Assembly: GCA_963809855.1 (NCBI GenBank)
Contig: CAWELF010000001.1
Coordinates: 1,245,980 to 1,309,979, forward strand
DNA: 64,000 bases
Direction of reading: 5' to 3'
DNA from: an uncultured Bacteroidales bacterium
GTDB taxonomy: Bacteria > Bacteroidota > Bacteroidia > Bacteroidales > VadinHA17
Positions 55,754-64,000 of this stretch are shown piece after piece. The position numbers were made by a program, and so were the translations under genes. How positions within the stretch are numbered: position 1 is the first letter of the stretch; each line of letters opens with the position of its first letter. The notes beneath the pieces are model-generated. The model searched no databases. It was given only the letters and a program-made list of their open reading frames with translations, and was not told the origin of the DNA.

Positions 55754-57043
55754 TTACCTTTTGTTTTTTGAAACCAAATAACGGAAAGGGTTAACAATCT
55801 TCTGGATAAGGCGTAGATCTTCGCTGATGATTTCTGCTGTGCCAACCATATTTTGGGTGAATTCAAGCTTCTTTCCATACAAAGTGTTCAAACCATCCGG
55901 CAGGTCAATTTCAATTATGTAAGCATCACCTGTTGGAACAAGGGATTTCGATTTCACCACTCCCCTAACCATCCCGTATTCAAGATATGGATAACCACTT
56001 AGCTTGATATTCACTAATTGTCCGGGTTTAACTTTGCCCGATCGTTGCATTTTAAGATTGATTCTTCCCAGGTAACTGCCTGCATCAATCGGCACAATGC
56101 TTAGCACAGGTTCATCTTTTATTACAGACTGATTAATGCTCCAGAATCTTGTGAATGAGACAGTTCCATCAATAGGAGATATTAAAAGATAATTGTTTTC
56201 CCATATTTTAATCTGGGCTTTCAGGTTCATAAACGATTCTCCCAGAATTGCCACATACTTTTCTTTTTCCTGATTCCTGTTAATTCTATAATCCACAAGT
56301 AATTGCCTCTTTTCAGCAAGCTCTATCAACTTTGAGGAATGATCCAGTCGAACCTGCTGTAATTCGATGTTAAGGCGTATTAGTGATTGATGAGATTTTT
56401 CAAGTTCACTTTCGGGGATGACCTTATTCGCATAGAGAGAAGAATCGCGCTTGTATTTTCTTTCTTCAAGATTCCTGTTCTCTGAATTTAATTTCTCTTT
56501 TATAACCAGCCTGTTTATATATTCCTGGATTCCATTTATTTCATCATTAAGTGAATTGATCTTGTTCCCATAAAAATCATTCAAAGTATTGCTGTTCAGA
56601 TCTGATAAATTCTTTAGAAATGTCGAATAGAAACCCTGAAGTTCCCCAAGCTCAGAAAATACTGGAAGCGATCGTGCCTGAAGCAGCTCGGGTCTGCTGA
56701 TTGTATCAATGGTTCGTTTAAGTGATTCAATCTCGGTCATTGAAGCAGTTGTCTCCATTACAGCAATTAACTGACCTGCAGCAACATGCTCCCTTTCCTT
56801 TGCATAAAGATTTTTTATACGTCCGGAAATCTTCGTCACAAGGGTTACCGGAGGATTAACTGTTGTTATTTCAACTGGCGCAGGAATTGTATCGGGATAT
56901 CTGATCAACCATGCAAAAAAGATAAAAACAACAAAAACTGAAAACATTATGGTGGTCCCCCATCGGAGGATCTTTCTGGGAGGTCTTCCCATAATCTCGC
57001 GAACAGGATCGGAATATAATATTTCAGGTTTGCTGTCTTTCAC
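55754..57043 (-). CDS. HlyD family membrane fusion protein of peptide exporter
   Basis: GTG start; TM, coiled coil, LISPIDGTV, SGKVKPGQLVNIKLSGYPYLEYG. Confidence 0.9.
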   Translation of the reverse strand: MKDSKPEILYSDPVREIMGRPPRKILRWGTTIMFSVFVVFIFFAWLIRYPDTIPAPVEITTVNPPVTLVTKISGRIKNLYAKEREHVAAGQLIAVMETTASMTEIESLKRTIDTISRPELLQARSLPVFSELGELQGFYSTFLKNLSDLNSNTLNDFYGNKINSLNDEINGIQEYINRLVIKEKLNSENRNLEERKYKRDSSLYANKVIPESELEKSHQSLIRLNIELQQVRLDHSSKLIELAEKRQLLVDYRINRNQEKEKYVAILGESFMNLKAQIKIWENNYLLISPIDGTVSFTRFWSINQSVIKDEPVLSIVPIDAGSYLGRINLKMQRSGKVKPGQLVNIKLSGYPYLEYGMVRGVVKSKSLVPTGDAYIIEIDLPDGLNTLYGKKLEFTQNMVGTAEIISEDLRLIQKIVNPFRYLVSKNKR

Positions 57044-57052
57044 AGGTTTATT

Positions 57053-59239
57053 TTAATTGCCAAGTTCAAGTTGATTTTTTACCAGGTTATAGTATGCACC
57101 TTTATTTGAGATAAGCGATTCATGATTACCGGATTCGATTATCCTTCCGTTATCAAGCACCACTATCTTATCTGCATCTCTCACAGTGCTCAGGCGGTGA
57201 GCAACAACAATTACAGTCTTCCCGATATAAAATCCTGAAAGGTTTTCAATTATAGCTTTTTCATTATTGGCATCAAGAGAGTTTGTAGCTTCATCGAAAA
57301 TAATTATACTGGGATTTTTATATATCACCCTGGCAATCAGCAGTCGCTGCTTCTGCCCCTGGCTCAAACCATGACCGTTAGCGCCAATTTTAGTGTTATA
57401 CCCCAGAGGAAGAGACTCAATAAAACCCCTGATGTTGGCAATTTCCGCAGCATTGACCAGCTTTTCCTCATTAATTTCTTCAGTTCCCGGTGCAATGTTA
57501 TAAGCTATTGTATTCTGGAAAAGAAAACCGTCCTGCATAACCGCTCCTACTTTTTCGCGCCAGATTTTAAGGCTCAGATTGTTTAAGCGTGTGTCACCGA
57601 TAAGTATTTCTCCGCTTACAGGTTCATAAAAGCCAAGAAGCATCTTGAGCAGTGTCGTTTTTCCGCTTCCACTGGTACCAACTATCGCGGTGATTTTATT
57701 TTCTTCAATAAACAGGTCCACATCCTTCAGGGCAAATGGCGATCGTGGTCCTTCGTACTGAAACGACAGGTTGTTTATATAAATGTCTTTATTGTCAGGG
57801 AGTTTGCGCACCTTCATCTCCTGGTTAGGTTCTTCCTCCTCCATTTCATGAATTTCAGCGAGTCTGTCGAGGCTCATTTTTGCGTCCTGTGACATTCTGA
57901 AGAATCCAATAATCTGATTTACAGGCACATTAAGCTGACCAATAATAAACTGGACGGCCAGCATCATACCAAGTGTCATATTACCATTGAGAACTGCGGT
58001 AGCTGCAGTGATGGTAATGAGGATGTTAGTTACTTCATTAATAAATGTTGCACCTGCTGATTGATACTGTATTATACCAAGTCCCTTTACCTTTAATCCA
58101 AACAAAGTTGCCTGCAGCTTTTCCCAATCCCATCTGGTACTAAGTTCACTTTGAGTTAACTTTATCTCCTGCATACCATTTACAATGTTTATCAACTTAT
58201 TATTTGATGCAGACATCTGTTTAAAACGTTGATGATCGAGCCTTGCCCTTGACTTCATAAACAAAGAAACCCAAATGATATACAGAACGGAACCAGCTAT
58301 GAATAATGCCAGAATTTTCAGGCTGAAAATTGCCAGGACAATTCCAAAAACAACCATATTGAAGAAGGAAAACAGAATGCTCAGACTTGTTGAAGTAAGA
58401 AATTCTTCAATTCTGTTGTTGTCGTCGATTCGCTGAAGTATATCGCCAGTAAGTTTCGTATCAAAAAAAGCAACCGGAAGCGACATTAGTTTCTGCAGAA
58501 ACCCGGATATTACGGCAACATTTACCCTCGATCCGATATGCAAAAGAAGCCATCCTCTGATAAATTCAACCGACATTCTTCCTATCACAAGCGCCAGCTG
58601 TGCGAAGAGGATGAGATAAATAAATCCTATATCATTATTATTCAAGCCAATATCAATAATGGCCTGAGTAAGAAAAGGGATTACAAGCTGAATACAGCTT
58701 CCCAAAAGCAAACCGAGAATTAGTTGAAACAGGTATTTTCTGTACAGTCGAAAATACTTATATAAAAAATTGAAGCCTTTAGACTTCACGTGCTCTGCCT
58801 CGTTTTCAAATAAAGCAGGTGTCGGTTCAATTATAAGAACAAGTCCTGCTGGTTTACCATCTGTTTTTGTTGCAGCCCAATTCCTTACGAACTCATCGGT
58901 ATTGTACTTTATAAGTCCAATAGCCGGGTCTGCAACCCAGATTTTCCCGTTCTTTATTTTATAAACGACAACAAAGTGTTTTTGCCGCCAATGCACAATG
59001 CAGGGAAGTGGTACATTGTCGTTCAGCATGTCAAAAGGAATCTTAACCCCTAAAGTTCTGAAACCTAATGAATCTGCAGCTTCAGACAAGCCAAGGAAGG
59101 AGACACCTTCCCTTGTTATATAACATTTTTTTCTAAGTGATTCAATTGAAAAGCTCATTTTGTAAAACTCTGCAACCATTTTCAGGCAGGCAGGTCCGCA
59201 ATCCATCGCATCGGGTTGATTTACAAAAGGGAAGGACAT
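57053..59239 (-). CDS. Peptidase C39-containing ABC transporter (PCAT, double-glycine peptide exporter)
   Basis: QPDAMDCGPACL (catalytic Cys), HWRQKHFVVV (His), ADPAIG; TMD; GTSGSGKTT, LSQGQKQR, FDEATNSLD. Confidence 0.95.
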   Translation of the reverse strand: MSFPFVNQPDAMDCGPACLKMVAEFYKMSFSIESLRKKCYITREGVSFLGLSEAADSLGFRTLGVKIPFDMLNDNVPLPCIVHWRQKHFVVVYKIKNGKIWVADPAIGLIKYNTDEFVRNWAATKTDGKPAGLVLIIEPTPALFENEAEHVKSKGFNFLYKYFRLYRKYLFQLILGLLLGSCIQLVIPFLTQAIIDIGLNNNDIGFIYLILFAQLALVIGRMSVEFIRGWLLLHIGSRVNVAVISGFLQKLMSLPVAFFDTKLTGDILQRIDDNNRIEEFLTSTSLSILFSFFNMVVFGIVLAIFSLKILALFIAGSVLYIIWVSLFMKSRARLDHQRFKQMSASNNKLINIVNGMQEIKLTQSELSTRWDWEKLQATLFGLKVKGLGIIQYQSAGATFINEVTNILITITAATAVLNGNMTLGMMLAVQFIIGQLNVPVNQIIGFFRMSQDAKMSLDRLAEIHEMEEEEPNQEMKVRKLPDNKDIYINNLSFQYEGPRSPFALKDVDLFIEENKITAIVGTSGSGKTTLLKMLLGFYEPVSGEILIGDTRLNNLSLKIWREKVGAVMQDGFLFQNTIAYNIAPGTEEINEEKLVNAAEIANIRGFIESLPLGYNTKIGANGHGLSQGQKQRLLIARVIYKNPSIIIFDEATNSLDANNEKAIIENLSGFYIGKTVIVVAHRLSTVRDADKIVVLDNGRIIESGNHESLISNKGAYYNLVKNQLELGN

Positions 59240-59365
59240 TTGTAGAAGCAGAAAATTGATTTATAACTAAAGTAAAGATATTTATATTTTGATTAGGATT
59301 ATAGTCTTATTAGGATAAAAACTGAACCATCTGGTCATTAACCTGATTTTAGGTTTTGGAAATAT

Positions 59366-59373
59366 TATATTTG
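59366..59373 (+). promoter_or_regulatory. -7 box for ECF sigma gene
   Basis: TATATTTG 21 nt upstream of ATG. Confidence 0.55.
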
Positions 59374-59394
59374 TCAACTGATACTTAACAATTA

Positions 59395-59967
59395 ATGGGT
59401 TTCTTTAAAAATGTATCTGATAAAAGCATAATAGATGGCGTACGCAATCAGGACGACAAAATTCTGAATTGGCTGTATGACAATTATTTACCCCAGGTCA
59501 GAAGTTATGTATTCAATAATAGCGGAACTGCTGAGGATGTTTCGGATGTATTTCAGGATGCAATTATTGCACTTTATACACAGATAACTGAAGATGACCT
59601 GAATCTTAGAGGAGATCTGAAAGGATATTTTTATGGCGTTGCAAAAAACATCTGGAACGTTAAGTTAAGGAAGGAAAGAAGAACCACTGAACTGGAATTT
59701 GACCCTGTCGATGCAGAAGACTCTGACCAAATGAATTATCTTGTACTTGAGGGCGCCATTAACAGAGCATTTTTGAAACTCCAACCTGATGAGCAGATGG
59801 TATTAAAAATGTTTTCAGAGGGCAAATCATACGAAGAAATTGCTCTAAAAATGGATTATAAAAATGAGACCTATGCAAGAAGAAAAAAATACTTGTGTAA
59901 AGAAATACTGCTCGATATCCTTAAGGAAGATCCTGAATATCAGGATCATTTTCGTTTAATGAACTGA
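59395..59967 (+). CDS. ECF-type RNA polymerase sigma-70 factor
   Basis: Region 2 (LYDNY..V..GTAEDVSDVFQDAIIALY, YFYGVAKNIW) and region 4 (EGKSYEEIALKMDY..YARRKKYLC). Confidence 0.9.
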   Translation: MGFFKNVSDKSIIDGVRNQDDKILNWLYDNYLPQVRSYVFNNSGTAEDVSDVFQDAIIALYTQITEDDLNLRGDLKGYFYGVAKNIWNVKLRKERRTTELEFDPVDAEDSDQMNYLVLEGAINRAFLKLQPDEQMVLKMFSEGKSYEEIALKMDYKNETYARRKKYLCKEILLDILKEDPEYQDHFRLMN

Positions 59968-62900
59968 ATTGTCAGAAAGCTGACAAGAATAACAATTAGC
60001 AGTGAGCCCCCGGCTATTAAATATTTTGAAAAATACAGAGGTTCATTATTGCCATAGATTACAAGCGTTGACCAGTAATAGGGATGAGATCTTAGCTGAT
60101 CAATATTTTTCAAATATGTGATTCTTGCTTTTCTAAGCGCTCCACTCTTCGATTTACCCCATTTCAGATTCTGATAAAATAATTTAACGATATCAGTTCC
60201 TGATTTGTCTTCAATCTCCCACATCGACATTACGACTGACTGACTGCCAGAGTATATAAATCCCCTGGCAAGACTAAGAATTCCCTCACCTGAGTCCATC
60301 AGGCCTGTTCCTGTATTGCAGGAACTCAATACAACCATTTTTGCTTTCAGAGGAATTCCGTAAACCTCGTAGGTCTTCAGATAACCATCATTTAATGTAT
60401 CATTTTTATGGCTGAAAATCAATGTGGAACGCATTGGATCCTTAATGTTGATCAATGTATGCATTGCCAGATGAATGATATCAAACTTACCGGATTCTGC
60501 TTTGTAATTTGATTCACTTGCCTCGTCATTTTCGTAGAGTTTTCCTCTTGTAATCTCCGAAACATATTCAGCCTCCTGCCTTGCAAAAGGAAGGTCCTGA
60601 AGCAAACCGCCATCAGCTTGCCTGCTCAACAATACTTTCTGGATATCAATAGGTTCAGGGTAATTCGGAGCAAATGCAATAAGCTTTTTACCAAAATTAA
60701 AAGTCTTCCTCTCAGATTCTGCCATAAACGTGGCGGAATATGTATAGGATATATCATAATCTTTCATCAGATAATTAATATCACGATAAAAAATATTGCT
60801 GTCAGAGCTGATGGAAGTCGGGATTGTTTCAAATGGAATATACGCCAGAAGGTTATCAGGAGAAATTATCAGCTTGTCGGAAATCAGATATGGTAACATT
60901 GGAGCTATGAGAGTATTATACAATTTAAACCCGATTGTCTGGAAATTCCCAAATGCCGCCCGGGCATCTATGTCTGGTGAAGGAATTGAAAGCAGTTTCC
61001 GGAATTGATTAATTTCAGAATAGAATGATGTATCTATTTTTATCGAAATAAGTTTCTGATATTTCCTGTTCGCAATGAAAACATACAACAAGGTATCAGA
61101 TGAAACATAATTAATATAATTTCCAGTTCGTCCGATAATTGATTGAATATCACTAAGTTTAGCAACCTGGGTGTTAAATTTATTTGAGTAGTAATCAGGA
61201 TATTTTTTCTCGAATATTACAATTAATGAATCTCTGCTTTTCACTGCACCAATCAGGCTTTCCTTCCAGTCTTCAATAAGAGAAGAATCAGGTTTATCAA
61301 CTGCCTGCTCTTCAGTGATTCTCGCATTTAGCATATTAATCTCCCTCTGGAGTTGTTGCTCCATATCTGAAATGTTGGCAGGAATATGAAATTTTGAAGC
61401 CTTTAATTCGCGTGAGGAAGAAAGTAAACTTGCTGCTTTGCTCTTTTCTGAATAGGTAAAAGCCTTTTCCAGATAAACTTTGTCTGACGTTTTGTTATAA
61501 AGGAGATTAAAATCGCCGATCGCACTCAGGTAAGAATTTCTGTAGTTCTCCCCCAAAATTAATCTTGAATCCTCCTCTGTCAGATTAATACGTACCCTTT
61601 CGACAAGTGTAACAATAAATTCTGAAGTACTTGATGCCGCCATAAGGAACTTATCATCAGATGTTTGCAAATACAATTCCCATAAGATCCTATATTTAGC
61701 CTTAAAAACACTGAGAGTCCTCCTGTCGATTTTAACTGAATCTATTGAAGGGTTATCAAATGTTTTTGAGAGCTGATTATTTTTATTCTTATTGAAAAGC
61801 ATGGATTGAATTATTTCAAGCGCTTTCATGGAATTGCCTGCTTTGGCAAGCGAAAGGGAATAGCCAATATAAACAGATGTTTTAAATAATGGGTCCTGAT
61901 TGTTTTTATCAAGATAAGTAATGCATTCTTCAAAGCATTCAATCGACTTTTGATAATCGAGCATATATTCTCGCAGATAGTCGGCATAATTGTTAAGCAC
62001 CCAGTAATAAATATGCAATCCCTCTCCTTCAGTAGATGAAGCTTTTTTAAGTGCATTTAGCAGAAGTGATTCTCCTTTTATTTTATTTCCTGAGTTGCCC
62101 AGGAAAATGGAGTAACTGTTTATCATGTTATATGCGAGGGATGAATTGGTAGAAAGGGCTTTTGCAATTCCTTTCTCATAATATTTGATAGCAGTCTCAG
62201 GCAATCCCAGGTTTGAATAGGTAACTGCCATGCTATTCATTAAGTTTATATAGTCATTATTAAGATCGAGACGGTTAGTATTGTATATTGATTCAGATTT
62301 ATCAAGATAAATTCTGGCTTTCGAAAAATCTGCCAGCCTTACATAACTAACACCCAGGTTATTATATAGATTAAAAGCATTTTCGGGAGTAGCTACCTCG
62401 GAATAATTGCTTAGTATTGACAGGGCAGTATTAGAATAAGCTATTGCCTTTTCATAATCCTGCAGTTCAATGTAAGCAGCAATAAGTGAGGAATAGATAT
62501 TTATCAGGAAAGGATCAGATTCTCCGGATAAACTCTTCGTAACCTCAAGGGATTTTAGGGTATATTCCTCAAGTTTTCTAAGATCTCCTGTTTCCAAATA
62601 TGCAAGACCCAGGTTGTAGAGGGTTTTAGCGTACCTGCCGTCTTTATCTTTATTCTCATCTCTGATATCAAGAGATAATTTTAAATAATATATCGCTTTA
62701 TCAGGATTTCTTATCAGTTTGTAGTATACTCCAATATAATAATAGGAATCGGCTAATATTTTTCTGTCAGGATTTGTCCTGGATATTTTCTGAACAATTT
62801 TATCTACAATGAATTTGCCCTTTCTAAAATCATTCTTTGAAAGTAAATTAAGAAGTGACAGGTTTAACTGATTGATTTCTTCGGAGTATTTACTTCCGAA

Positions 62901-63044
62901 ATTTTCAGAAGTCTGAACTGATTCACTATTTGACTTTTCGCCTGAATATAAGAAAGAGTTACCTGACCGGGAAGATATATTAATCCACCCGCTGAGTAAT
63001 AAAAGTCCGAAAACCTTAAATGAAATCCCCCCTGATCTTATCAT
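59946..63044 (-). CDS. TPR-CHAT (caspase-like) protein with N-terminal signal and C-terminal TM anchor
   Basis: TPRs (YYYIGVYY, LYNLGLAY, YNNLGVSY), IISPDNLLAYIPFE, IIHLAMH, VVLSSCNTG, SLARGFIYSG, SMWEIED, HPYYWS, C-terminal hydrophobic helix + KRK. Confidence 0.92.
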   Translation of the reverse strand: MIRSGGISFKVFGLLLLSGWINISSRSGNSFLYSGEKSNSESVQTSENFGSKYSEEINQLNLSLLNLLSKNDFRKGKFIVDKIVQKISRTNPDRKILADSYYYIGVYYKLIRNPDKAIYYLKLSLDIRDENKDKDGRYAKTLYNLGLAYLETGDLRKLEEYTLKSLEVTKSLSGESDPFLINIYSSLIAAYIELQDYEKAIAYSNTALSILSNYSEVATPENAFNLYNNLGVSYVRLADFSKARIYLDKSESIYNTNRLDLNNDYINLMNSMAVTYSNLGLPETAIKYYEKGIAKALSTNSSLAYNMINSYSIFLGNSGNKIKGESLLLNALKKASSTEGEGLHIYYWVLNNYADYLREYMLDYQKSIECFEECITYLDKNNQDPLFKTSVYIGYSLSLAKAGNSMKALEIIQSMLFNKNKNNQLSKTFDNPSIDSVKIDRRTLSVFKAKYRILWELYLQTSDDKFLMAASSTSEFIVTLVERVRINLTEEDSRLILGENYRNSYLSAIGDFNLLYNKTSDKVYLEKAFTYSEKSKAASLLSSSRELKASKFHIPANISDMEQQLQREINMLNARITEEQAVDKPDSSLIEDWKESLIGAVKSRDSLIVIFEKKYPDYYSNKFNTQVAKLSDIQSIIGRTGNYINYVSSDTLLYVFIANRKYQKLISIKIDTSFYSEINQFRKLLSIPSPDIDARAAFGNFQTIGFKLYNTLIAPMLPYLISDKLIISPDNLLAYIPFETIPTSISSDSNIFYRDINYLMKDYDISYTYSATFMAESERKTFNFGKKLIAFAPNYPEPIDIQKVLLSRQADGGLLQDLPFARQEAEYVSEITRGKLYENDEASESNYKAESGKFDIIHLAMHTLINIKDPMRSTLIFSHKNDTLNDGYLKTYEVYGIPLKAKMVVLSSCNTGTGLMDSGEGILSLARGFIYSGSQSVVMSMWEIEDKSGTDIVKLFYQNLKWGKSKSGALRKARITYLKNIDQLRSHPYYWSTLVIYGNNEPLYFSKYLIAGGSLLIVILVSFLTIQFIKRK

Positions 63045-63195: not shown

Positions 63196-63246
63196 CGTGT
63201 CACAAATCGGCATCTACCGACACGTAGCAATATAAAAGGACACGTA
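63196..63246 (+). promoter_or_regulatory. Candidate ECF promoter / repeated GACACG motif upstream of peptide gene
   Basis: cgtgtc at 63196, gacacgta at 63219 and 63239; gtcaca-N18-cgta spacing. Confidence 0.35.
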
Positions 63247-63276: not shown

Positions 63277-63408
63277 ATGAAAACTCAGACTTTCGAAATG
63301 ACAAAAGACATTTTCAGTACGTTTGCATTGGTTAATGAAGAGATGATAAAAGTTCGTGGCGGAAGTGAACCAGAAGTACACCCAACTCCTCCTCCTGTAG
63401 TAATCTGA
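63277..63408 (+). CDS. 43-aa double-glycine leader peptide precursor (not in ORF track)
   Basis: MKTQTFEMTKDIFSTFALVNEEMIKVRGG-SEPEVHPTPPPVVI; L-x-x-E-E-M-x-x-V-x-GG leader pattern; A-rich translation start; PCAT 4 kb away. Confidence 0.85.
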   Translation: MKTQTFEMTKDIFSTFALVNEEMIKVRGGSEPEVHPTPPPVVI

Positions 63409-63412
63409 TCAA

Positions 63413-63447
63413 AAAATTACTCTTGTTTTATCGAAAACAGGAATTTT
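63413..63447 (+). terminator. Hairpin/terminator after peptide gene
   Basis: aaaatt..cttgtttt-atcg-aaaacagg-aatttt. Confidence 0.55.
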
Positions 63448-63623: not shown

Positions 63624-64000
63624 ATGAAAACAAATGATTTTTCATATCTCATTGAACGGTACAATGCCGGAGATATGAGTGAAAATGAAAAAATAAGGTT
63701 CGAGAAAGAACTTGAGGGGAATAAAAAACTTCAATATGAAGTAAATCTGAGCAGGAAGACTGACGAGATTCTTAAAAATCAGTCTGTTGTTTCCCTAAGA
63801 AGAAAACTACAGGAAATTGAGAGCAGAAGGACAGTAAATGTTCCTGTCAGAACCAGAAAGCTACCTGTATATATCAGATATGCAGCTATTGCTGCTATAT
63901 TGATAGCTGTGGGGAGCATTACTCTCTTTACCGGGAGAAACATGACCGGTGATGAAATTATCGATCGATATTATAAAGCTTATGAACCACCAACAGTTTC
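63624..64000 (+). CDS. Anti-sigma-like membrane protein, truncated by window end (not in ORF track)
   Basis: MKTNDFSYLIERYNAGDMSENEKIRFEKELEGNKKLQYEV... helical N-terminus, basic stretch, TM RYAAIAAILIAVGSITLF, then exported part; frame open to the end of the window. Confidence 0.75.
   Translation, partial: MKTNDFSYLIERYNAGDMSENEKIRFEKELEGNKKLQYEVNLSRKTDEILKNQSVVSLRRKLQEIESRRTVNVPVRTRKLPVYIRYAAIAAILIAVGSITLFTGRNMTGDEIIDRYYKAYEPPTV

Follow-up and report, generated by a model that had tools for sequence, protein, structure and literature searches.

TPR-CHAT proteases such as separase, Craspase and DdvA are switched by partners. In the DegS/RseA/sigma-E system of E. coli, the C-termini of misfolded porins are read by the PDZ sensor of DegS, a serine protease. 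Peptide pheromones with double-glycine leaders are textbook biology of Gram-positive bacteria, and those of Firmicutes, namely ComC/competence-stimulating peptide with ComAB, BlpC and plantaricin A, are read by membrane histidine kinases. RRNPP receptors (Rap, NprR, PlcR, PrgX, Rgg) are cytoplasmic, work with re-imported peptides and have neither a protease domain nor a sigma/anti-sigma pair. To our knowledge, double-glycine pheromones are almost unknown as signals in Gram-negative phyla. The closest described system to the locus presented here is DdvS/DdvA of Myxococcus xanthus, in which DdvA is a transmembrane anti-sigma factor with a periplasmic TPR-CHAT domain and a signal described as unknown (PMC11506125). 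Here, a locus at the end of a 64,000-nucleotide stretch (the window; contig CAWELF010000001.1 of assembly GCA_963809855.1) from an uncultured Bacteroidales bacterium of the VadinHA17 lineage was analyzed. A gene for a 43-residue double-glycine precursor sits between the genes of a TPR-CHAT protease and an anti-sigma-like membrane protein, and a sigma factor of the extracytoplasmic function (ECF) type and a C39-ABC (ATP-binding cassette) exporter adjoin. With a rough probability of 0.55, the peptide is an unmodified exported signal gating a split DdvA/DdvS-like protease/anti-sigma/ECF-sigma switch, a reading in which export, cleavage, binding and proteolysis are steps that we infer. Peptide signalling of this kind has not yet been described in Bacteroidota, and full-text literature searches returned no paper on a CHAT/ECF/double-glycine peptide system in this phylum.

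The precursor is encoded by a short open reading frame (ORF) below the usual gene-calling cut-offs, which an earlier note on the window had singled out from its letters:

63277..63408, + strand: precursor peptide gene, 43 codons plus stop, translating to MKTQTFEMTKDIFSTFALVNEEMIKVRGG followed by SEPEVHPTPPPVVI
63277-63363, + strand: leader segment, 29 aa, with VRGG at its end
63364-63405, + strand: core segment, 14 aa, SEPEVHPTPPPVVI

Checking of the translation confirmed both the frame and its 29-residue double-glycine leader. Leaders processed by peptidase-containing ATP-binding transporters (PCATs) are hydrophobic at positions -4, -7 and -12 and acidic near -8. Counted from the cleavage point, the leader carries G-1, G-2, V-4, M-7, E-8, E-9 and L-12; the hydrophobic residues had been named correctly in the note, and the usual acidic ones at -8/-9 are there as well. 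Its length and VRGG end agree with leaders of the GG/GA/GS type (about 15-30 aa). In an alignment of 23 rows (A1), L18, M23, G28, G29 and P39 are invariant, while V26 and E22 are conserved to at least 90%. The core contains five prolines in 14 residues, two Glu and one His, has no Cys, Lys or Arg and is acidic and not amphipathic, just as a Cys-free, acidic, Pro-rich core had been proposed. In Pfam and NCBIfam, including the curated leader and bacteriocin models, the peptide matched no family at E<=1, and an Rfam search of the window's peptide region gave no match. Frame, length and motifs are nevertheless kept across the genomes of the genus and the profile matches described below, so the ORF goes beyond chance; judged by this conservation, it is a real, conserved gene. 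A search for RNA sequencing runs listed none.

The neighboring genes, from the exporter to the window end, are the following:

55754..57043, - strand: HlyD-family membrane fusion protein, 429 aa (TIGR01843 1e-19, below cut-off; PF13437)
57053..59239, - strand: peptidase-C39 ABC exporter (PCAT), 728 aa (PF03412 4e-36, PF00664, PF00005; TIGR01193 1.3e-122, below cut-off)
59395..59967, + strand: ECF-type sigma-70 factor, 190 aa (TIGR02937 1.2e-16, 60.7 bits against a cut-off of 42.9; PF04542, PF08281)
59946..63044, - strand: predicted TPR-CHAT protease, 1032 aa (PF12770 7e-54 plus TPR families)
63624..64000, + strand: 5' part of the gene for an anti-sigma-like transmembrane protein, 248 aa, which continues 370 bases past the window end

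The exporter gene lies 4 kb from the peptide gene, and its product displays DCGPAC and HFVVV motifs, which probably carry the catalytic Cys and His. Exactly one C39 domain and one CHAT gene occur in this genome, both at this locus. Behind the anti-sigma-like gene follows a 253-aa ORF, the first 151 residues of which match HisKA, while its orthologue in locus L021 matches HisKA and HATPase_c. Pfam and NCBIfam searches of the locus conserved in the genus gave no modifying enzyme, and ten extra ORFs in related loci either matched HisKA, LytTR or, below threshold, a thioredoxin-like family, or had no match. The idea of an unmodified signalling peptide, already put forward in the earlier note, is thus supported, if not proven, by the adjoining sole C39 exporter, the lack of a linked modifying enzyme and regulatory neighbors across families, although the peptide could instead inhibit the protease.

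Anti-sigma protein, ECF sigma factor and a promoter motif turn this idea into a concrete circuit. The C39-ABC/HlyD exporter would cut the precursor after Gly29 and export the 14-residue core unmodified. In the periplasm, the core is predicted to lie extended, C-terminus first, in the concave TPR groove of the membrane-anchored TPR-CHAT protease, and occupancy of the groove would switch the caspase-like His/Cys protease. The likeliest substrate would be the neighboring single-pass anti-sigma protein, cut in the disordered juxtamembrane linker with Arg127, and its cleavage would free the ECF sigma factor. The latter could then transcribe the peptide/anti-sigma/histidine-kinase operon from the unusual candidate promoter at 63198-63224, which would result in a self-inducing loop with built-in negative feedback. 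The locus thereby offers a gene-encoded, chemically simple candidate ligand and, with it, a groove predicted as its receptor as well as candidates for the cleavage site and the promoter read-out. With a synthetic 14-mer, it can hence be tested directly by what an envelope CHAT protease and its ECF sigma factor are switched. If the circuit is real, it would also point to the type of signal worth seeking for DdvA-type switches, and fast co-divergence of core and TPR groove would create strain-specific 'pherotypes'.

Compared with DdvS/DdvA, the locus has in common an ECF sigma factor, a single-pass anti-sigma protein, a periplasmic TPR-CHAT part of the separase/craspase type and a proposed site-1 protease acting on a juxtamembrane linker (PMC11506125). 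Here, however, the TPR-CHAT part stands as an independent protein anchored by its own C-terminus, and the anti-sigma protein has only a small TPR domain, the two being encoded by two genes on opposite strands in all 16 complete loci of the genus. His858, His862 and Cys909 are invariant in 25/25 CHAT sequences, whereas the DdvA active site is called incomplete (PMC11506125). In the N-terminal domain of the anti-sigma-like protein, no Cys/His zinc motif like that of the cytoplasmic, sigma-binding CHCC domain of the DdvA type is visible in residues 1-80 upon reading the sequence. Finally, a dedicated exported peptide and an exporter belong to the present locus, while the DdvA regulon is described as a CBASS/CRISPR island (PMC11506125). 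Type III-E Craspase resembles the proposed switch in its ligand-switched TPR-CHAT protease and its ECF-type sigma output, and Csx29 chains are among the top structural matches. In contrast, Craspase is cytoplasmic and switched by Cas7-11 binding target RNA, while a periplasm-facing protease with a candidate peptide ligand is predicted here. No ORF longer than 1032 aa was found in window positions 40000-64000 and about 20 kb beyond, the part of the genome that was searched for Cas7-11.

As in DegS/RseA/sigma-E, a membrane-anchored periplasmic site-1 protease would sense a peptide C-terminus and cut a single-pass anti-sigma protein, freeing an ECF sigma factor; the protease here is caspase-like, though, its sensor a TPR superhelix and its proposed ligand a dedicated gene product. 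With the double-glycine pheromones of Gram-positive bacteria, the locus would share an unmodified linear GG-leader peptide, C39-ABC export and control of its own locus, and related loci even hold small HisKA kinases and LytTR proteins. Unlike there, a TPR-CHAT protease is predicted to receive the peptide, an ECF sigma factor would provide the output, and the bacterium is a Gram-negative member of Bacteroidota. RRNPP regulators are similar in that a short, unmodified linear peptide in a TPR groove would act as the switch, but the TPR protein here carries a CHAT protease domain and membrane segments and matched no helix-turn-helix family. Since defining features of each fail, the locus is not a member of DdvS/DdvA, DegS/RseA, the Gram-positive pheromones or RRNPP. 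A link between TPR proteins and pheromones is mentioned in PMC10352776.

Six-frame searches detected homologues of the peptide in 21 of 24 other genomes of the same genus, while 16 genomes of other families gave just two very weak matches (E 0.18 and 0.52). With a peptide profile, 684 proteins were retrieved from a large protein collection at E<=0.001. The 120 of them that were listed are 43-87 aa long, have no Pfam domain and are called 'hypothetical protein' or nothing at all. Together with the window's own peptide, these 121 sequences have the leader pattern ...F.L[ST]NEEMIxV[RK]GG in common, with [VIL][RK]GG in 121/121, followed by cores of 14-17 residues, one of which is C-terminally extended. 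The cores follow the pattern [DE]..[DE]P[IV][IV]..xxPP[IV][KI][IL]-COOH, that is, an acidic start, usually with [DE]P[IV][IV], and PP[IV][KI][IL] at the C-terminus; neither the alignment nor the 121 sequences reveal a conserved Ser or Thr or any Cys in the core. Within the order, 29 genomes out of 401, which belong to 21 of the 236 genera, had a match to the profile, whereas outside the order, but within the phylum, one of 400 genomes did, weakly and in the leader part only. As far as the profile detects it, the family therefore appears largely confined to the order. Some loci hold tandem peptide genes with nearly identical cores (L014:1501-1641 and 1692-1817; L070:9945-10299; L083:9589-10148). 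The window's own genome contains a single copy by BLAST and by a leader regular expression; 37 other matches of this expression proved to be pieces of ordinary proteins or chance matches.

For genus-level conservation, 20 loci were fetched. The whole series of DUF349 protein, HlyD, C39-ABC, sigma factor, CHAT, peptide, anti-sigma, kinase and OmpA/TPR protein is present in 16 of them, and three of the remaining four are cut by contig ends. The fourth, L038:9937-12972, holds a second, divergent pair on one strand, in which a peptide with the core DDPGMPPTPPVLPKL lies directly upstream of a CHAT gene whose product is 27% identical to that of the window. Identity to the window's proteins across these loci amounts to 75-86% for the exporter, 38-60% for CHAT and 39-61% for the anti-sigma protein. 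Since synteny inside one genus proves little, the peptide profile was searched across the order, and 20 contexts from other families were inspected. These contain CHAT in 16, anti-sigma-like genes in 12, sigma factors in 10 and C39-ABC exporters (>50% identity) in 10 cases, although CHAT and sigma factor are only 22-35% identical to the window proteins; acidic, Pro-rich cores recur in these contexts, often containing extended stretches of polyproline. A module spread over many families of one Bacteroidota order may be a common, unrecognised communication or envelope-sensing system in environmental Bacteroidales.

The CHAT protein was modelled by AlphaFold (AF2) with a mean predicted local distance difference test score (pLDDT) of 82.3 and a predicted template modelling score (pTM) of 0.77. 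It consists of a signal-like N-terminus, a TPR superhelix (49-416), a helical region (441-637) and the CHAT domain (641-1000), followed by a C-terminal transmembrane helix (1007-1031) with a basic tail. All 24 listed CHAT relatives likewise finish in a hydrophobic helix with basic residues behind it, and most of them start with a signal-like segment. A periplasmic location is deduced from these two ends of the protein, and together with the invariant His and Cys residues they suggest that the CHAT protein is an active protease facing the periplasm. A Foldseek search with the model returned separase (9hn0_B, 1.4e-13), Csx29 (7zoq_A, 4.8e-13; 7y84_C, 8.6e-13) and DdvA (8rw5, 8.5e-12; 8rot, 1.7e-11) as top matches, while by sequence search of the PDB, CHAT and anti-sigma proteins match just generic TPR proteins. 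The CHAT alignment leaves out L039 and L040, in which the gene is cut by contig ends, as well as L024 and L025. In the latter two (L024:10463-13343, L025:10444-13225), the CHAT gene matches in two adjacent frames, which is either a frameshift or a sequencing error.

Binding of the core was addressed by complex prediction using CHAT residues 50-1005 and the full precursor, with shallow alignments built for this analysis, and three controls. The interface score ipSAE reached 0.63, 0.64 and 0.64, compared with 0.01 for the best of the three controls; of the solved complexes in a benchmark, 58 of 80 attain the mark applied to this score, as do 2 of 110 mismatched pairs. The runs agree in no less than 47% of their contacts, and partner pLDDT was at least 40. 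On the peptide side, confident contacts involve only residues 30-43, i.e. the predicted mature core, and no leader residue. On the CHAT side, they are periodically spaced over residues 65-317, plus 359, 441 and 445, along the wall of the TPR groove. Residues 41-42, at the C-terminal end of the peptide, are placed against CHAT residues 106-147, and the predicted groove displays conserved Asn at 144, 229, 267, 270, 306 and 309. Position 140, beside the peptide C-terminus, is Lys or Arg in 17/17 genus sequences, while other contact positions vary. A TPR-groove ligand had been proposed in the earlier note from the polyproline stretch and hydrophobic C-terminus of the core, and the prediction agrees with this (0.64 versus 0.01); on the model, the core looks like a groove ligand, a pass that does not in itself show binding.

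A co-variation of core and TPR region, likewise suggested beforehand, was assessed by partial Mantel tests on 13 of 21 genus loci, namely those in which the regular expression found the peptide and all proteins were complete, with a neighboring unrelated gene as control. Distances between cores are correlated with those between CHAT TPR regions (partial r 0.44, permutation p 0.0075), between CHAT middle regions (partial r 0.44, p 0.004) and between the periplasmic domains of the anti-sigma proteins (partial r 0.49, p 0.0005). No positive correlation with the exporter was observed in these 13 loci (C39 -0.30, ABC -0.17). The expected co-divergence with the CHAT TPR region is thus seen, accompanied by that with the anti-sigma TPR domain and not with the exporter.

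The anti-sigma-like protein comprises an N-terminal helical domain, a transmembrane helix (84-102), a disordered linker and a predicted periplasmic TPR domain (135-247). Arg127, Trp207 and Tyr208 are invariant in 29/29 aligned sequences, and in the model Arg127 lies in a linker segment of pLDDT <50 (126-132), between the transmembrane helix and the well-folded TPR domain. For DdvA, cleavage in the equivalent juxtamembrane linker is proposed by its authors (PMC11506125); by analogy, a cut at the Arg127 linker is our guess for the present protein. In loci L070, L071, L076, L077, L080 and L083, the anti-sigma-like gene is found directly 3' of the sigma gene, and some other-family loci hold a second anti-sigma-like copy beside the peptide gene. 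Anti-sigma genes usually occupy this position behind a sigma gene. The genes behind the peptide gene and adjacent anti-sigma-like gene were also noted in three of these loci (L070:11133-12730, L071:10940-12120, L083:10972-11349): a small HisKA kinase follows the pair in L070 and L071, and one or two stand-alone LytTR DNA-binding proteins of 117-126 aa occur in all three. In the window's genus, the small kinase is kept just past the window end and the adjacent LytTR gene is absent, with 13 LytTR proteins encoded elsewhere in the genome.

Two cis elements flank the peptide gene:

63198..63224, + strand: bipartite promoter-like motif TGTCAC-N15-GACACG, with an A/T-rich tract before it, 53 nt before the ATG
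63421-63442, + strand: hairpin CUUGUUUU-AUCG-AAAACAGG, just past the stop codon and before the anti-sigma gene

TGTCAC-N14-17-GACA[CT]G is found once in the 4.56-Mb genome, at 63198-63224, and the block AAAATAaTTgATTTTTTcgTGTCACAAAA-N11-cGACATGTA is common to 20 orthologous upstream regions, about 50-80 nt before the ATG. Peptide genes of other families have a related G[GT]T[CT]AC(C)TTTTT ... ACATATA motif. The sigma gene and the exporter operon instead carry motifs of the TAnnTTTG type, the type of the housekeeping -7 element of Bacteroidota. Judged by these motifs, the one at 63198-63224 is a candidate ECF-type promoter rather than a housekeeping one. In L078, sigma gene and peptide gene are both preceded by one and the same GGTTACCTTTTT motif, while in L073 a similar -35 element is present. 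The exporter/sigma intergenic region (window 59240-59394) contains two strongly conserved blocks, AGTAAAGATATTTATATTTT and GGAAATnnTATATTTG, which are likely divergent housekeeping-type promoters. Of the downstream hairpin claimed in the earlier note, existence and apparent conservation stood, since in 14 of 20 orthologous loci a hairpin at this position did better than all but at most 4 of 30 shuffled sequences. It is weak, however (centroid -7.5 kcal/mol, z -1.1, not significant alone), and a terminator scan made no call at 63421-63442; a partial terminator before the anti-sigma gene is possible. Besides, the Rfam motif DUF805b (RF02914; 43.6-49.7 bits, gathering score 35.6) was observed upstream of polyproline-type peptide genes, about 20 nt from the ORF, in 5/5 such loci of other families (L044:1630-1664(-), L047:1654-1690(-), L050:1406-1440(+), L052:1658-1692(-), L060:1659-1694(-)). 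The window's peptide gene is not preceded by it. As an orphan RNA motif, DUF805b may be part of the 5' leader of polyproline-type peptide genes.

Several findings weigh against a peptide-gated protease/anti-sigma/sigma switch. The anti-sigma assignment is based on a weak NF052375 match (E 0.0017, 18.4 bits versus a cut-off of 100) and adjacency. In the predicted complex, the peptide's own pLDDT is low (40-42), the alignments are shallow, the controls include no scrambled or non-cognate core, and interface residues are no better conserved than the remaining TPR region (mean 0.52 versus 0.52). Because many TPR-peptide complexes are solved, the pass may moreover reflect general likeness. The co-divergence is treated as a hint, as the partial Mantel test is liberal for related sequences, and its p values carry no multiple-test correction. 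A motif common to sigma and peptide genes was seen in just one of nine distant loci (a second has a similar -35 element only, the other seven nothing), so that reading of the 63198-63224 promoter by the neighboring ECF sigma factor is presumed; in the window's genus, the sigma gene is without the peptide-gene promoter motif. Four of the 20 order-level contexts showed no CHAT gene; these have cores that are not Pro-rich or, in one case, end at a contig edge. Finally, the locus contains no outer-membrane exit duct, and cell-to-cell signalling is therefore not established. In its most far-reaching form, the reading would describe the first peptide-ligand-gated caspase-like protease switch with peptide cell-to-cell signalling in Gram-negative Bacteroidota, in which an unmodified Pro-rich 14-17-mer in an Asn-lined groove licenses cleavage at the Arg127 linker and the ECF sigma factor amplifies the peptide. 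This form is put forward tentatively, being possible but not what we would presently expect to hold in full.

Of the other ways in which the locus might be explained, the nearest leaves the predicted binding in place and reverses its effect. In analogy to separase, which is held inactive by an extended securin chain, the core could occupy the TPR groove as a pseudosubstrate or lock that holds the CHAT protease off, and would then be a negative, homeostatic regulator. The same groove prediction serves this explanation equally, separase including its securin complexes ranks among the top structural matches, and, judging by gene order, the peptide gene shares a transcript with the anti-sigma gene, which is a negative element as well. 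The confident contacts, on the other hand, end at residue 445, short of the active site around 858-909. Activation and inhibition are not told apart by the data at hand; we consider inhibition unlikely, yet the most serious of the competing explanations. A different receptor would be the periplasmic TPR domain of the anti-sigma protein itself. No other part reaches as high a partial correlation with the core as this domain (r 0.49, p 0.0005), and the peptide gene lies directly upstream of the anti-sigma gene in the genus and several other families. However, in L076, L077, L080 and L082 the peptide gene adjoins CHAT and not the anti-sigma-like gene, and the prediction for the CHAT groove, the one pairing modelled, passed its controls. 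We consider the anti-sigma domain an improbable receptor.

The peptide could also be an antimicrobial or effector of the class II bacteriocin kind, with sigma factor, anti-sigma protein and CHAT merely regulating its production. A double-glycine leader with a C39-ABC/HlyD exporter is the classical bacteriocin export route (PMC6363468), and two tandem copies exist in some loci. Yet the core, at 14-17 aa, is short, and it is acidic, devoid of Cys and not amphipathic, the conserved locus encodes no immunity-like small membrane protein, and no bacteriocin family model was matched at E<=1. Core length and end motifs are tightly kept over the 121 sequences, where toxins usually have variable cores, and the core is predicted to dock in the TPR groove of its own neighbor. 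An antimicrobial role thus appears to have only a small chance. Lowest in our estimate, and highly improbable, is a modified RiPP (a peptide made by ribosomes and modified after translation), in which the core, e.g. its prolines or the Asp/Glu-Pro unit, would be altered before or after export by an enzyme encoded elsewhere. An unlinked enzyme is conceivable where no linked one exists, and modification could take place at the Pro and acidic residues that are conserved. But the conserved genus locus holds only DUF349, HlyD, ABC, sigma factor, CHAT, anti-sigma, small kinase and OmpA/TPR genes, the ten extra ORFs of related loci added no candidate beyond the HisKA, LytTR and sub-threshold thioredoxin-like matches given above, and the core offers no Cys and no conserved Ser or Thr.

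Outside the window, the source genome's contig C1 has a G+C content of about 54-64% over positions 1-297000, compared with about 39% further on, and the change near 295-300 kb is abrupt. This high-G+C start is probably a chimeric join or contaminant, which fits the contamination estimate of 5.17%, or else a very large foreign island.

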